Shown here piece after piece: positions 49,274-54,461 of a stretch of 54,461 nucleotides of DNA. The position numbers and the translations under genes were made by a program. Numbering within the stretch: position 1 is the first letter of the stretch; each line of letters starts with the position of its first letter. The notes below the pieces were generated by a model that saw only the letters and a list, made by a program, of their open reading frames with translations, was not told the DNA's origin and did not search any database. Origin of the DNA: Fidelibacterota bacterium (GTDB lineage Bacteria > Fidelibacterota > Marinisomatia > Marinisomatales > UBA1611); the NCBI GenBank assembly GCA_028101095.1, contig JAOHKG010000004.1:1-54461 (forward strand), written 5' to 3'.

Positions 49274-49594
49274 GTGGTTATAAACATCTCTGTAACAATA
49301 ACTTACAGAAATCTATACTGGTCAAAATACACTCCTTATCAACAACTCCTTTACGACCGAATAAAGTCATATAGAGAAGATTTTGTTTCACCTAAAAGAT
49401 GGTTTGAGATACGAAAAATACTTACATCTGAAGGATTGAAATCTCCACTTGGTAAGACATTAGGAAACAATCATATAATGAGTATCTATAAGAAAGGTAA
49501 GATAAGAGAAGATAGATTGAACTCTGAAGTCAAAGTCAAAAAATCATTAGATATAATTGAGTACGATAGTGACCAAATTACCATTTTAGACTAA
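49274..49594 (+). CDS. Small protein resembling the DNA-binding 'Recombinase' subdomain of large serine recombinases (possible fragment)
   Basis: EIRKILTSEGLKSPLGKTLGNNHIMSIY resembles the IA..LN..G..T..G..W....V..I pattern. GTG start, and the frame is open back to 49211. Confidence 0.45.
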   Translation: MVINISVTITYRNLYWSKYTPYQQLLYDRIKSYREDFVSPKRWFEIRKILTSEGLKSPLGKTLGNNHIMSIYKKGKIREDRLNSEVKVKKSLDIIEYDSDQITILD

Positions 49595-49788
49595 CCTCAA
49601 AACACCCTCTAAATTCCTTCAGAAATCCTTATCTTTTTTAGATGTGTGAATTCATATCTAACAGGATAAATAACGATGTAGGTGTAATTATAAAGGTTTA
49701 TAGGGTATTCTGTGATAGTATGTGAGAGTAATTGAGGGGTATGGGTAATAGATGGGGATTGGACAAACTTTTTTTTATAAAATACCGA

Positions 49789-49833
49789 CTCTATGTAATT
49801 TTCATATAGAGGTTATTTTTTTCTCTATATGAA
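49789..49833. terminator. Probable terminator between convergent ORFs
   Basis: TTCATATAGAG (49801-49811) pairs with CTCTATATGAA (49823-49833). Alternatively, CTCTATGT/ATATAGAG forms a hairpin followed by a T-tract. Confidence 0.5.
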
Positions 49834-49853
49834 TCCTTTCAAATGAAGTCAGA

Positions 49854-50525
49854 TTACTTTGGTTTCTTCTTATCTGATTCTTTCACATAGACACTTCTAT
49901 CTTTCTTCTTTTTGTATTCATCTCTTTCATCTAATGATTTAGAAGTAACCTTACGAACTTTACCAGTCACATCTTTGGTAACTACACCTTTCCGTTTATC
50001 CATCTCTTTCTTTGGTAATACTCTAAATGAATCACCTTTTTTACTTGTCTTTATCTTCATAGATAACTTGTATCTAAACTCATCACATAATTCATCATCA
50101 GACATCTTACCGATAAGTTTATCAGTATGAACTTTACCATTCATATGGAGACTACCTATGTGACACCATACTGGTTTACCAAAGTATGATACCTTACCTC
50201 TGATATGTTTATCTGTTTTTACAAGTGATATACTTTCATTACCCTTATCAGTTAGTTTAGACTTCTGATTGATAACTACATTCATCAACTTCAATTCTCT
50301 TTCCCATTCATTGATTTGAGATAGGTGAGGATATTTAGAATCTTCAAGTTTCTGAATCTTCTTTTTTAGTTCTTCCACATCCTTATCAATCTTACTGATT
50401 TTATCTTCACGACCTTCAATCCATCCCCACATTCTTGACCTCTTACCTAATAGGTTTTCAAGAGGGTATTCATCATAGGGAAGATTCTTCCAATCAATGG
50501 GTGGTCTACCAGTTTTATTCTTCAT
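49854..50525 (-). CDS. Hypothetical basic coiled-coil protein (alanine-free)
   Basis: 223-aa ORF with an AAGGA RBS on the minus strand, an N-terminal TGRPP AT-hook-like motif, a heptad region and a Lys-rich tail. Confidence 0.7.
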   Translation of the reverse strand: MKNKTGRPPIDWKNLPYDEYPLENLLGKRSRMWGWIEGREDKISKIDKDVEELKKKIQKLEDSKYPHLSQINEWERELKLMNVVINQKSKLTDKGNESISLVKTDKHIRGKVSYFGKPVWCHIGSLHMNGKVHTDKLIGKMSDDELCDEFRYKLSMKIKTSKKGDSFRVLPKKEMDKRKGVVTKDVTGKVRKVTSKSLDERDEYKKKKDRSVYVKESDKKKPK

Positions 50526-50537
50526 ACAAATCCTTTA

Positions 50538-50653
50538 TAGTTGATATTTTTGTATATCCTCAAATTTACCACTTTATCAACCAATAATACAATAGTGAAA
50601 TGGTAAAGGGTTGATATTATGTTGTATATTCAGGTGAAATGAGAAATCAACAA
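50538..50653. repeat. Four 11-bp boxes at a 35-bp period in the divergent intergenic region
   Basis: TAGTTGATATT at 50538, TTTATCAACCA at 50573, GGGTTGATATT at 50608 and GAAATCAACAA at 50643. Confidence 0.7.
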
Positions 50654-51668: not shown

Positions 51669-51715
51669 TGAAAAGATAGAGAAATTATAAACAGAAACTA
51701 AAAAAGAGGTTACAA

Positions 51716-53650
51716 ATGAAAAGTAAACAGAATAATAAATACGAAATCGGAAAACCAGAGATGTCTTATAGTGATGTCATAATGTGGAATAAACAAAAGT
51801 TCAATAGACTTGGTTATGAAGATGACTTTCAATACAGAAGTAAGGATAAGAACAAATGGGGTGTTTCTACTTTCTTTCTGAAAGGTGGAAAGGGAAAGAA
51901 GGAGAAATTCTACAATGAGAAGGACTCAATTATAATGGACTATAAGTCAATTACAGATGTTAGTTCATTTTTAGTAAAAAGAAACCTTTTCAGAAAACAA
52001 GTAAACGATAAAAAGTTTGTTATCATTAGTCTACCAAAGTATGAGATGAAAGACTTATATCGGTTTGGACTTTTGTGGTTGTCAGATGGATATCACGATG
52101 AGAATGATTCATCAACTTGGTTTGGTAGTAATGGTTGGGATGAAAATAACGATGTAATAGAACACGGTAAGATAAAAGAGATAATCGGATATCTACCTAA
52201 CAAATTCCGTAATGGATTCTTTGATATAATGGATGGAAGATACTTTTTTATCATTCCTTCACAAGAGGTTGTTTATTCAACCGATTTTAGTCTGATGATG
52301 AATGTCAGAGGACAAGAAGGTGAGAATGATTCTTACAACAAAACAAGAGTAGAAGGATTCCTATCTACTTGGGTTGATGTTGAGGTTCCAGTTTCGGTTG
52401 ATGTAGATGATAAAGATTACAGAGTCATATCTGAAAAAATACATAACTACAGAAATGGAACTTCAAAGATTGAAGTCTCAATGTCTGAAATGTATAAGAG
52501 ATTGAGTAATCAAACTGGTGACTTTTATAATAGTAAGACGAGTGGTAAAGAATGGTTTGATGAGGATTTCAGAATGAAAGGACTCCAAAGTAAGTCTACA
52601 GGAAATCATATGATGAGTTCTTCAAATCCTGATTATAAGGGTGGTGTTGGAATATCAGAATCATTTACTGATAAATGGGATGGTTATGGAAAGTATACTC
52701 CACCTTTAGATGAATCTCTTGATATAGAAGATAATAAGAAAGTTGAAATGGTCTTGGATAGTCTTGATGAAAGAAGAAAAGAAGTTCAAAAAGGATTTCG
52801 GAAATGGAAAAAAGATACCAGTAAGAGACTTGATGAAATAATCAATCATCTCCAAGAAGGTAAGAAGTCTTTGTTGGAGAATTCTAAAGAGATTGATAAG
52901 GTTCTGAAGGAGAAGGTTGAGTATGATACTAACTTGAAACAATTTCGTGATTCTTGGGTGGAAGATAACCTTCCAAATTTTCAAGAAGGTTATAGAAATA
53001 GTTTACAAGTTCCTAATAAATACCAGGAGTTCACAAAGGACTTGATGGTTGGTAAATACAAACAAGATATTGGAATACTTACAATGTTGAGTGTTGATAC
53101 TTTGAAAAAAATGAGAACAAGTGGTTCACCATTCTTCAAAGACTTATTAGAATCTTCAACAATTGTAGATACCAGTAAGAGTAGGAATTATTACAAAGAC
53201 AAACTTCATTTATCCTATGGAAAAGAAGATAAAGTCAGTCAGATAATTTTTGGGGAGTTTTATGGTTTAGGTGATGAGGAAAGTTTAGTCTCAACACCTA
53301 ATGAAAAGAGACAAATGGATTATCTTCAATATGGAAGTAATGACTACATTGTTTTCTTTATTGAGAGGTTTGTAAAACTTGTTATCAAAGAATTAGAACT
53401 CTTTATAAGTAATAACAAACTGAAGAAGAATCACAACTTGTATAGGGATGAAATTGAAGATTTGAAGAACAAGTATCTACGAGATACTAATCACTTCTTG
53501 GACATTCCAATTCCTACTTTGGACAAAGAGAATGAGAATATGGAATTACTATCTTGGATGGATGATTTCTCTGATAAAGTAACTGATATGGTAGGAATAA
53601 AGAAGATAGAGATTCCAACTAAACCAAATCCATACAAGAAAGAAAAGTAA
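51716..53650 (+). CDS. Large hypothetical protein, 644 aa, with no Ala and no Cys
   Basis: Long ORF with an AGAGG RBS and a central coiled-coil-like segment. No family recognised. Confidence 0.85.
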   Translation: MKSKQNNKYEIGKPEMSYSDVIMWNKQKFNRLGYEDDFQYRSKDKNKWGVSTFFLKGGKGKKEKFYNEKDSIIMDYKSITDVSSFLVKRNLFRKQVNDKKFVIISLPKYEMKDLYRFGLLWLSDGYHDENDSSTWFGSNGWDENNDVIEHGKIKEIIGYLPNKFRNGFFDIMDGRYFFIIPSQEVVYSTDFSLMMNVRGQEGENDSYNKTRVEGFLSTWVDVEVPVSVDVDDKDYRVISEKIHNYRNGTSKIEVSMSEMYKRLSNQTGDFYNSKTSGKEWFDEDFRMKGLQSKSTGNHMMSSSNPDYKGGVGISESFTDKWDGYGKYTPPLDESLDIEDNKKVEMVLDSLDERRKEVQKGFRKWKKDTSKRLDEIINHLQEGKKSLLENSKEIDKVLKEKVEYDTNLKQFRDSWVEDNLPNFQEGYRNSLQVPNKYQEFTKDLMVGKYKQDIGILTMLSVDTLKKMRTSGSPFFKDLLESSTIVDTSKSRNYYKDKLHLSYGKEDKVSQIIFGEFYGLGDEESLVSTPNEKRQMDYLQYGSNDYIVFFIERFVKLVIKELELFISNNKLKKNHNLYRDEIEDLKNKYLRDTNHFLDIPIPTLDKENENMELLSWMDDFSDKVTDMVGIKKIEIPTKPNPYKKEK

Positions 53651-53656
53651 AATAAT

Positions 53657-53749
53657 TGGTTGATAAAATGGGATGAGTTTTTTTGTTCTGTTTTATCAAC
53701 CATAAACAAAGTGTATGAAATGATTTATGTAGATAAACAGACTTAGATT
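53657..53749 (+). repeat. Box module: inverted pair, third box and a -10-like hexamer
   Basis: TGGTTGATAAA at 53657, TTTATCAACCA at 53692, ATGTAGATAAA at 53727 and TAGATT at 53744. Confidence 0.85.
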
Positions 53750-53795
53750 TAGGTGAAATGATAATAATAACAGAAAAAGTAAACAGGAGTAAACA

Positions 53796-54143
53796 ATGAT
53801 AAATAACAAAAAAGACTATGAACTAATGGGTGATATGAATCCAGTAAGAGACAGAATGGAAGTAGTAGAGTTTCCGTCAAAACTTGAAGAACTACTGAAA
53901 GAGATGTTGGGTGTTGGTAGTAAGAGTTTGAGTGAGGTAATTGACAGAAACTTTAGTGAAAAAGATAATGTCAGTTACAATGGTAGTTCAAACAAACCAA
54001 TGAGTAAAGAGGAAGAAAACAAGTATATGAGATTACTTCATCTTTTCCTTATGGAGACATATTTCAAAATGGAAAAACTAATGGTTCACGATAGAGAAAA
54101 TTATAAGAACAAATCAGAATCAGTAAAAGAAGGAGAAAACTAA
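53796..54143 (+). CDS. Hypothetical protein (alanine-free)
   Basis: 115-aa ORF with an AGGAG RBS. Confidence 0.7.
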   Translation: MINNKKDYELMGDMNPVRDRMEVVEFPSKLEELLKEMLGVGSKSLSEVIDRNFSEKDNVSYNGSSNKPMSKEEENKYMRLLHLFLMETYFKMEKLMVHDRENYKNKSESVKEGEN

Positions 54144-54461
54144 TGAATGAATTACAATTAGAGAACGGAGAGAAAATAGTTCTTCCAACAATGAATGAGA
54201 ACTATGGAAAGTTTTCAGATGAAGAACTTCAGAGTCTTCCAGTAGGAGAACTACAACCTGAAGATTGGACACATCTAACTGATTACTATTACTTTGATTA
54301 TGATGAGTTTGTTGAAGATACTGGACTAAATGAGGAGATTGTAAATCAGATAGTTTTTCTTGATTTGTTGGGTTGGACAATCAAATCAGAGTCTTATCTG
54401 AATAACCATATGATGGGTGGAAGTGTAGGTGGAATGAGACTATTGTTGAAAGGTGAACCTA
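54143..54461 (+). CDS. Acidic hypothetical protein, 3'-truncated by the window edge (absent from the ORF track)
   Basis: TAATG stop/start overlap and AGGAG at 54131. Reads MNELQLENGEKIVLPTMNENYGKFSDEELQ...GGMRLLLKGEP, 106 codons with no stop and no Ala. Confidence 0.75.
   Translation, partial: MNELQLENGEKIVLPTMNENYGKFSDEELQSLPVGELQPEDWTHLTDYYYFDYDEFVEDTGLNEEIVNQIVFLDLLGWTIKSESYLNNHMMGGSVGGMRLLLKGEP

Follow-up and report, generated by a model that had tools for sequence, protein, structure and literature searches.

How can a stretch of bacterial DNA encode intact proteins that contain no alanine at all? The question is raised by one end of contig JAOHKG010000004.1 from a Fidelibacterota bacterium (GTDB lineage Bacteria; Fidelibacterota; Marinisomatia; Marinisomatales; UBA1611; GenBank assembly GCA_028101095.1), analyzed over positions 1 to 54,461 and referred to here, at its full length of 54,461 nt, as the window. 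An initial annotation, made from the letters of the window, had noted seven alanine-free open reading frames (ORFs) near its right end and attributed them to a ban on the dinucleotide GpC. Positions 49230–54461 are the left arm of an integrative element of ~12.1 kb inserted at the end of the host gene glmS. The complete loss of GpC from this element is probably an extreme case of restriction-site avoidance. The loss of further, palindromic restriction-type words and the existence of a family of excisable elements go beyond what had been noticed initially.

Absence of GpC and of alanine

The last GpC of the window lies at 49218–49219, inside the 3′ end of glmS, and none occurs in the 5,242 nt from 49220 to 54461. 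Along the window, GpC amounts to 13–64 per kb up to 49 kb and then falls to zero. Over 49230–54461, 121 copies would be expected from base composition and 129 at the observed/expected ratio of the host genome, which is 1.07; the intergenic part of the tail alone (1,024 nt) should hold ~19 and holds none. In the whole assembly (76 contigs, 1.22 Mb), there are three long GpC-free runs, namely the window tail and the contigs C37 (7,249 nt) and C71 (2,213 nt), both GpC-free over their full length; the longest run elsewhere measures 451 nt.

Because GpC is banned at the DNA level, the encoded proteins lack alanine, the codons AGC, GGC, CGC and TGC are missing, and no codon ending in G is joined to one beginning with C. 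The seven ORFs (106, 223, 73, 126, 644, 115 and at least 106 aa) total 1,393 residues and contain no alanine, an outcome with a chance of ~10^-32 at the alanine frequency of 5.1% seen in a crude set of long host ORFs of the window. Each of the four codons is used 0 times, and C is never the first base of the codon after ATG or TGG (72 cases), so that methionine or tryptophan is never followed by histidine, proline or glutamine. The 644-aa protein is also devoid of cysteine, and the only two cysteines of the seven ORFs are both found in the 223-aa ORF. Shine–Dalgarno-like purine motifs (AGAGGA, GAGGGG, AGAGG, CAGGAG, AAGGAG) stand 5–10 nt upstream of six of the seven starts (window 49244–54142). 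The statements of the initial annotation on alanine, cysteine, codons and dipeptides hold on recounting; it also remarked that host proteins of the window use alanine normally. The start it gave, 49274, lies within the element, 44 nt inside the true left end at the core dinucleotide 49230–49231.

Integration of the element at glmS

The right arm of the element is C37 1–6652, and a gap of ~240 nt, measured on the related locus L032 (loci compared in this analysis bear numbers preceded by L), separates the window end from the C37 start. In the integrated state, the order is glmS–attL, window 49230–54461, the gap, C37 1–6652 and attR. Two features define the left junction:

47400..49241, + strand: host glmS, 613 aa, with normal alanine content; its last codons are the integration target (attB)
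49230..49231, + strand: inferred crossover dinucleotide AC of attL, left end of the element, from comparison of attL, attP and attR

The attachment sites read ...GTTACAGTGGAATAA for attL, ...CATCACAGTGGAATAA for attP and ...CATCACGGTTGAGTAG for attR, and have in common only AC between the discriminating positions. The putative attB was derived from attL, attR (on C37) and attP (in L026, L030 and L032). According to blastn, homology to the episomal form (L026, L032) begins at window 49228–49230; the window from 49228/49230 onward corresponds to L026 from 5273, and C37 up to 6652 corresponds to L026 up to 5274. From the third base of the threonine codon onward, the element itself supplies the end of glmS, whose last three sense codons are Thr, Val and Glu, together with the stop, and its codons are synonymous with those replaced. 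In seven further loci, glmS is also found immediately to the left of the GpC-free zone, and the window glmS is 53–60% identical to the glmS copies of related loci, the named ones being Bacteroidota.

Evidence for a non-integrated form comes from four metagenome contigs (L026, L027, L030 and L032), in which the large serine recombinase (LSR) gene is directly followed by the homologue of the first window ORF and then by the other window genes, with their order kept. Contigs of the attP form, where sequence starting at 49230 is preceded by the recombinase-side arm, were obtained from one run labelled as a viral metagenome and one seawater run. L030 has an exact 123-nt terminal repeat and thus corresponds to a circular genome of ~13.95 kb with zero GpC. 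Judging from these arrangements, the element can apparently excise as a circle. A near-identical element is present in 18 DNA runs from 17–18 studies of seawater and related habitats (17 studies without the possible source run), and the run labelled as a viral metagenome holds 0.89 of the sampled element words. Two RNA libraries yielded short contigs that are 99–100% identical to parts of the element, which is only a hint of transcription.

An assembly artefact or a chimera has been ruled out by isolate genomes and about 100 independent contigs with the same property, and also because the attL and attR junctions are accounted for by site-specific recombination.

Two further GpC-free stretches occur in the same genome. 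The 597 nt that follow attR, where host DNA would be expected (C37 6653–7249, also L001 6653–7249), contain no ORF and have no homologue in any locus fetched; they may be a remnant or the left end of a second GpC-free element at glmS, inserted in tandem. Contig C71 (L002 1–2213) encodes three alanine-free leucine-rich-repeat lipoproteins, like the cargo of the GpC-free element in L043, and probably belongs to a second element.

A family of GpC-free elements

Sampling of the family went through a single recombinase family, that of the LSR encoded on C37. Among 79 LSR homologues, 66 have no alanine and 4 have one or two, these 70 reaching down to 27% identity; the other nine (22–29% identity) contain 19–72 alanines each. 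The forbidden dipeptides (methionine or tryptophan followed by histidine, proline or glutamine) are found 0 times in 43,421 residues of the LSR clade vs 9 times in 4,715 residues of normal LSRs. A FastTree phylogeny groups 77 alanine-poor LSRs in one clade against the nine normal ones with a support of 100. Three sequences with 3–6 alanines are nested inside this clade and, from their position, are best read as cases of secondary relaxation. Recombinase genes of the alanine-free clade that have regained both GpC and alanine were observed in L087 and L099 (LSRs with 23–24 GpC and 6 alanines), L090, L034 and L014; such copies are probably immobilized and under relaxed constraint, and could help to date the constraint.

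Of 20 loci from genomes, 12 are relatives at 34–38% identity, and in 11 of these 12 GpC is missing for 1 kb or more over the LSR gene. Their named hosts are Lutibacter, Algoriphagus, Flavobacteriaceae, Flavobacterium, Chitinophagaceae, Draconibacterium and Maribacter, with GpC-free loci in the cultured isolates Draconibacterium sp. IB214405 and Maribacter sp. ACAM166. In metagenomes, the LSR match has 0 GpC in 70 of 80 loci, and wholly GpC-free contigs extend to 16.2, 14.1, 9.8 and 8.1 kb. Host flanks contain 10–40 GpC per 500 nt, whereas the inside of elements contains 0–3. The GpC-free blocks from about 100 loci add up to 447,023 nt, or 297,525 nt after removal of redundancy at >90% identity; this pool, made up of GpC-free blocks of 1,500 nt or more, is GpC-free by construction, so that its size is the result. 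Taken together, these comparisons suggest an old clade of LSR-borne elements of marine bacteria, comprising named Bacteroidota genomes and the present host. The family is rare in single genomes: a match was found in one of 40 other related genomes (E<=1e-30) and in one of 199 other genomes of the phylum (E<=1e-60), figures behind which incomplete metagenome-assembled genomes may hide more. No relatives were found in IMG/VR or among isolate phages.

All 17 elements compared have in common the LSR and a small serine recombinase of 200–270 aa, and they fall into two clades. In clade A, whose LSRs are at least 47% identical to that of C37, elements of 12–19 kb carry many small genes without family match, among them the 223-aa and att-proximal ORFs of the window. 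A satellite-like hitcher would fit clade A better than an autonomous phage, because no capsid or packaging genes are recognized, yet DNA in attP form is present in a run labelled viral. SEC-C zinc-binding motifs (PF02810) were observed at the N- or C-termini of several unrelated clade-A proteins (L029 11654–16177; L039 4590–6299).

Clade B (LSR identity 34–41%) consists of defence islands. Seven of the compared elements, L008 (1–5566), L053, L069, L071, L084, L085 and L101, encode a complete and alanine-free type I restriction–modification (R-M) system (HsdR of ~1,000 aa, HsdS and HsdM), while an eighth, L043, has an HsdR homologue only; other cargo includes AbiH, a PD-(D/E)XK nuclease, an HNH protein and lipoproteins. 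The L008 HsdM can be aligned with solved type I methylases (E 4e-32), and 112 of its best 120 homologues (79–100% identity), from sources including Maribacter, Zobellia and Cyclobacteriaceae, have no alanine. This HsdM clade is highly abundant. One HsdM match is labelled Hellea sp. and one locus lies in a ‘Woesearchaeota’ bin, labels that reflect either a wider host range or misbinning. In total, the 232 ORFs of 19 element pieces contain 24 alanines in 57,774 residues. GpC-normal internal blocks were observed between a GpC-free attL module and a GpC-free recombinase in L005 (~6500–9900), L013 (~2550–3870) and L067 (~3000–7000); these could be later insertions or recently captured cargo.

Maintenance of alanine-free proteins

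Comparison of the window with L030 reveals how the ban is kept up. Of 4,949 aligned positions, 522 differ between the two. Roughly one random substitution in ten would give a GpC in a sequence of this kind, or ~54 of the 522 changes; neither sequence contains any, and new GpCs are therefore being removed. The ratio of nonsynonymous to synonymous substitutions (dN/dS), a check suggested by the initial annotation, ranges from 0.02 to 0.47 in six of seven gene pairs with L030: 0.16 for the 106-aa ORF, 0.13 for the 223-aa ORF, 0.44 for the 126-aa ORF, 0.47 for the 644-aa ORF, 0.17 for the LSR and 0.02 for the small recombinase. The seventh value, 1.64 for the 115-aa ORF, is drawn from very few changes.

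A second check concerned the possible reassignment of a codon to alanine. Alanine columns, defined as those with alanine in at least four of the nine normal LSRs, hold serine most often in the GpC-free clade, followed by leucine, valine, tyrosine, threonine, isoleucine, cysteine and glycine. Serine, glycine and valine, the replacements expected in the initial annotation, are all among them. In eight alanine-rich columns of 45 LSR genes, the codons are TCT, TCA, TCC, AGT, GTT, ACA, TGT, TAT and others. No single codon fills these columns, and codon reassignment has been ruled out as a source of alanine.

The alanine-free proteins include members of known families, namely the LSR and, in relatives, HsdM, HsdS and HsdR. 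Together with alanine-free relatives down to 27% identity, the dN/dS values and the absence of recoding, this supports the central proposal of the initial annotation that these are real, maintained proteins, with selection on the dinucleotide and not on the codon.

Palindrome avoidance and the GpC pattern

GpC is not the only word that has been lost. In 11,884 nt of the element, judged against Markov expectation, several palindromic tetranucleotides are missing altogether: GATC (0 observed, 61 expected), CTAG (0, 28), CATG (0, 47), CCGG (0, 3), ACGT (0, 13), TCGA (0, 16) and TTAA (0, 90), while GTAC is reduced to 10 copies against 41 expected. The host part of the window is normal in this respect (GATC 169 vs 202 expected; AGCT 163 vs 173). 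In the clade of the element, few or no copies remain of 12 of the 16 palindromic tetranucleotides, and the complete genome L030 keeps just AATT, ATAT and TATA. Palindromic 4-mers containing G or C stand at 0.01–0.14 of expectation in clade A (93 kb) and at 0.11–0.76 in clade B (204 kb). When words containing GC are set aside, the 4-mers with the strongest depletion turn out to be precisely the palindromes; GGNCC, CTNAG, ACNGT, GGAACC, GAATTC, GTTAAC and GAAGAC are also depleted. This depletion is the classic signature of restriction-site avoidance at the DNA level. The set of avoided words varies by clade. TTAA, for example, is absent from one subclade (the window with C37 1–6652, L030, L032, L027) and common in the sisters L029 (111 copies) and L039 (109), which points to a lineage-specific pressure from a TTAA-recognizing enzyme.

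The pattern of GpC is of another kind. CpG, with an observed/expected ratio of 0.36 in clade A, is kept in ACGA (414), CCGA (171) and ACGG (93) and nearly gone from ACGT (2), CCGG (0) and TCGA (3), whereas GpC is zero in every flanking context. Even GATC, avoided more than any other 4-mer, is present in the pool in 96 copies, against 0 GpC for ~7,000 expected by composition. The GpC-free pool extends over 26,241 nt of intergenic DNA, where composition predicts ~534 copies, and over 39 divergent promoter regions (7,697 nt), where it predicts ~159. Furthermore, the GpC ban is universal over both clades.

Genes of the element

The left arm, in the window, carries the following ORFs, all without alanine:

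49274..49594, + strand: att-proximal ORF, 106 aa, located beside attP or attL in both element types; homologues in L007, L013, L029 and L030; no Pfam family
49854..50525, − strand: 223-aa ORF conserved in the phage-like clade; homologues in L029 and L030, dN/dS 0.13–0.18; no Pfam or PHROG family
50677..50898, + strand: 73-aa ORF; homologue in L030; no family above cut-off
51187..51567, + strand: 126-aa ORF; homologue in L030
51716..53650, + strand: 644-aa ORF, also without cysteine; long central helix predicted
53796..54143, + strand: 115-aa ORF; homologue in L030 at 91% identity
54143..54461, + strand: N-terminal third of a ~308–318-aa ADP-ribosyltransferase (ART)-like protein, cut by the contig end; C-terminus on C37 3–368

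The right arm, on C37, adds three alanine-free proteins:

C37: HTH_17 protein
C37: small serine recombinase, 265 aa
C37 4713–6611: LSR, 632 aa; PF00239 (3.5e-20), PF07508 (4.4e-20) and PF13408 (3.6e-6)

The LSR combines Resolvase, Recombinase and Zn-ribbon domains, and its residues R11, V12, S13 and Q17 are invariant in 17 homologues. By eye, the 106-aa att-proximal ORF resembles the C-terminal DNA-binding end of the recombinase and is possibly a directionality or DNA-binding factor. The 644-aa protein has just three other homologues (63–75% identity) and no match in Pfam, PHROG, phage or IMG/VR searches; its structural models are unusable, with a pLDDT of 0.33 and no usable match in the Atlas and a pLDDT of 32.6 in AlphaFold2 (AF2).

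The gene of the ART-like protein is complete in L032 and L030 (L030 10431–11387), and the protein is present in all clade-A members. R229, G230, K280, E292 and E294 never vary in 50 homologues, and S251 and W252 hardly do, giving the C-terminal motifs YRG, SW[ST] and RxExE. No Pfam family matches. The structures that best match the fold of its AF2 model (pLDDT 78) are those of ADP-ribosyltransferases, but the scores are modest (Foldseek E at least 0.03; VIA Z at most 6.8), with Z values of 6.8 for TreX, 6.3 for diphtheria toxin, 5.4 for pertussis toxin and 5.3 for Scabin. On this model, the protein looks like an ADP-ribosyltransferase of the R-S-ExE type. Homologues at E<=1e-3 number 1,704, including hypothetical proteins of mycobacteriophages and phrog_4776, and look like an uncurated ADP-ribosyltransferase-like family.

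Searches against Pfam and PHROGs recognized no capsid, terminase, packaging/P-loop ATPase or replication genes in the elements, where most ORFs have no family match and could encode structural proteins; a single, weak Walker A motif was found in L030. No transposase or Tns family matched among the 17 element ORFs scanned, and no RNase family was detected in the element. Elsewhere in the window, a complete rRNA operon is located at 28148–33255, with two tRNAs in its spacer (28440–28560). Its 16S does not contain the Flavobacteria–Cytophaga (Bacteroidetes) probe target, so that the host may belong outside the groups that supplied most named relatives of the element.

Origin of the GpC ban

The explanation that is probably correct is an extreme form of restriction-site avoidance, in which nucleases are the selective agent and one of them is GC-specific. 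Elements would move between cells as naked or packaged dsDNA and would shed the words recognized by DNA-targeting enzymes, purifying selection at the DNA level keeping the whole element free of GpC. The LSR would have inserted the element into the last glmS codons, which the element restores. GpC is gone in all contexts while CpG is lost from palindromes only, and the GpC ban is universal while other avoided words vary; from both contrasts we infer an agent of effectively GC-dinucleotide specificity. This agent could be a nuclease, or else GpC might be modified and then cut in a modification-dependent manner; the owner of the agent could be the host, a helper phage or a competitor. Quite possibly, although this is put forward more tentatively, an undescribed DNA-targeting system of marine bacteria or phages recognizes essentially GpC, and a whole mobilome has long escaped it by deleting GpC, at the price of 19-amino-acid proteomes.

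Several observations weigh against this explanation. No bacterial nuclease or methylase specific for the GC dinucleotide was identified in this analysis, and to our knowledge none has been described. The GpC content of carrier hosts is normal, and a C5-methyltransferase (PF00145) was detected in three of the five genomes searched and is absent from both Draconibacterium, whose genomes are complete; a resident GC-specific R-M system is therefore not supported there, which leaves room for other hosts of the elements or for a helper or predator phage, and no C5-methyltransferase shared by the hosts was found. The few GpCs that do occur reveal no clear specificity: 36 ‘leaky’ copies are distributed as 4 RGCY, 18 mixed and 14 YGCR, against ~9/18/9 expected, a marginal deviation, and 60 copies in relaxed LSR genes are random (16/29/15). 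A few GpC are tolerated in some relatives, and others contain inserts of normal GpC content. The pool is GpC-free by construction and was reached via one recombinase family, and shared composition may inflate the FastTree support. Finally, GC is self-complementary, so that its absence from both strands cannot separate selection on DNA from selection on RNA, and most intergenic DNA may be transcribed.

Other explanations place the agent elsewhere. The GC-specific agent might belong to the elements' own life cycle, helper phages or phage-like elements destroying or modifying host DNA at GpC so that riders survive only if GpC-free. Such a scheme, which is unlikely on present evidence, would agree with a GpC ban found in both clades and in the deepest branches while other words are clade-dependent (TTAA in one subclade only, clade B partial), with resident hosts that show no GpC depletion and in two cases have no C5-methyltransferase, and with an ART-like protein conserved in all phage-like members. 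The lack of recognizable capsid, terminase, packaging and replication genes, combined with attP DNA in a viral-labelled run, would also fit a satellite like the VEIMEs, as these are described in the main text of PMC9618062. However, neither a helper phage nor such a nuclease has been identified, clade-B islands carry only ordinary defence genes, nothing connects the ART-like protein with DNA or GpC, and the strong avoidance of ordinary palindromes means that classic restriction at entry matters anyway. Selection could also operate on RNA, a GC-cutting ribonuclease (a toxin of the element or helper, or a host abortive-infection RNase) sparing transcripts without GC. It is known from MazF (ACA) and MqsR (GCU) that mRNAs without a cleavage site resist sequence-specific toxins; strand symmetry is uninformative for a self-complementary word, these compact elements are maybe transcribed almost throughout, and the RNA-library matches hint at transcription. 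This route is nevertheless improbable: the ban covers the att flanks and the 39 divergent promoter regions, the coincident avoidance of DNA palindromes has no rationale in RNA, no RNase family was detected in the element, and the cutting of one mRNA should be far less lethal than that of a genome, yet the GpC ban is stricter than that of any 4-mer.

The possibility that no single agent exists, and that the ban is the sum of many avoided GC-containing sites (such as AGCT, GGCC, TGCA, CGCG, GCGC, GCNGC, RGCY) over a very wide host range, is very slight. Every other G/C-containing palindromic 4-mer and several 5–6-mers are depleted, as pressure from many enzymes would predict, but such a sum should leave GpC in AGCA, GGCA and CGCA just as CpG is left in non-palindromes, which is not so, and the 96 copies of GATC in the pool contrast with the total loss of GpC. 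A mutational origin, through a GpC-context cytosine deaminase or error-prone copying, is scarcely tenable. The higher value of GT/AC in the element (1.00) than in the host (0.79) would be in its favour, but GA/TC and GG/CC are raised by the same ~1.2-fold, which is no specific C>T signature, alanine columns contain mostly serine and not valine or threonine, ORFs are intact with dN/dS <1, and relaxed copies regain GpC. Deaminase-type hypermutation is disfavoured by the first two of these points. Just as hard to sustain are independence from alanine, tRNA-Ala and AlaRS, which the initial annotation had considered, and protection from GpC-binding genotoxins. Small molecules of the actinomycin or bleomycin type bind GpC, and either benefit would make the loss of GpC or alanine useful; direct evidence is lacking for both. 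As a selected trait, independence from tRNA-Ala is without support since out-of-frame and intergenic GpC are equally absent, beyond the reach of codon-level selection; the element would gain nothing where a drug kills its host, and palindrome avoidance points to enzymes.

Relation to known systems and significance

The components of this system are of known kinds: site avoidance, serine-integrase elements, insertion at the glmS end and marine phage satellites. Restriction-site avoidance is a textbook phenomenon in phages and broad-host-range mobile elements, and the present elements conform to it as a passive form of anti-restriction, with palindromes under-represented in the element and not in the host and an avoided set that depends on lineage. 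Unlike in known cases, a whole dinucleotide is gone in all contexts over ~300 kb and down to 27% protein identity, at the cost of one amino acid. No report was found in the literature of the complete loss of a dinucleotide and an amino acid across an element family, nor of the near-total loss of palindromic tetranucleotides from complete genomes. Immunity through a missing target of 2–3 nt is shared with the mRNAs that resist MazF or MqsR. The chlorella-virus enzymes M.CviPI, specific for GC, and R.CviJI, specific for RGCY, make it clear that near-dinucleotide GC specificity is biochemically possible. Those cases are single genes or eukaryotic algal viruses, whereas a bacterial mobilome is concerned here, and no enzyme of the MazF/MqsR or CviPI/CviJI type was found in the elements or hosts.

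As in serine-integrase prophages and islands, the LSR has the Resolvase/Recombinase/Zn-ribbon architecture, a short attB lies in a gene end, the crossover is 2 bp, a small HTH protein is encoded nearby and integration is presumably unidirectional. The differences are that the recombinase is alanine-free, that the nearest phage integrases are at most 29% identical and that a second, small serine recombinase is always present. The use of the glmS 3′ end as a safe haven recalls Tn7-like elements at attTn7; unlike these, the GpC-free elements have no Tns or transposase genes, and a serine recombinase inserts them inside the last codons, the glmS end being re-created. An ecological parallel may be the VEIMEs of marine bacterioplankton, small integrative elements that occur in the particle fraction as well as in the integrated state; some have serine recombinases and R-M or Abi cargo, and many VEIME genes are without homologues (PMC9618062). 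The accessible part of that report makes no mention of dinucleotide or alanine loss, and glmS is absent from its main text.

The natural, conserved, multi-domain enzymes of these elements (630-aa integrases, 1,000-aa HsdR, HsdM and HsdS) indicate how far selection on DNA can push a proteome, and they are ready test cases for the engineering of proteins with a reduced alphabet. The compact serine integrases, with their defined target at the glmS end, are a further resource. Such elements can be found very simply by scanning for long GpC-free runs; pipelines for viruses and mobile genetic elements miss them. Since GpC is lost whatever its context, a hitherto undescribed enzyme activity of near-dinucleotide specificity is to be expected in the sea; if true, this would be a new class of weapon for defence or takeover and a possible reagent. 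In marine bacterioplankton, the elements would represent a widespread and unrecognized vehicle for defence systems, including type I R-M, AbiH and nucleases.

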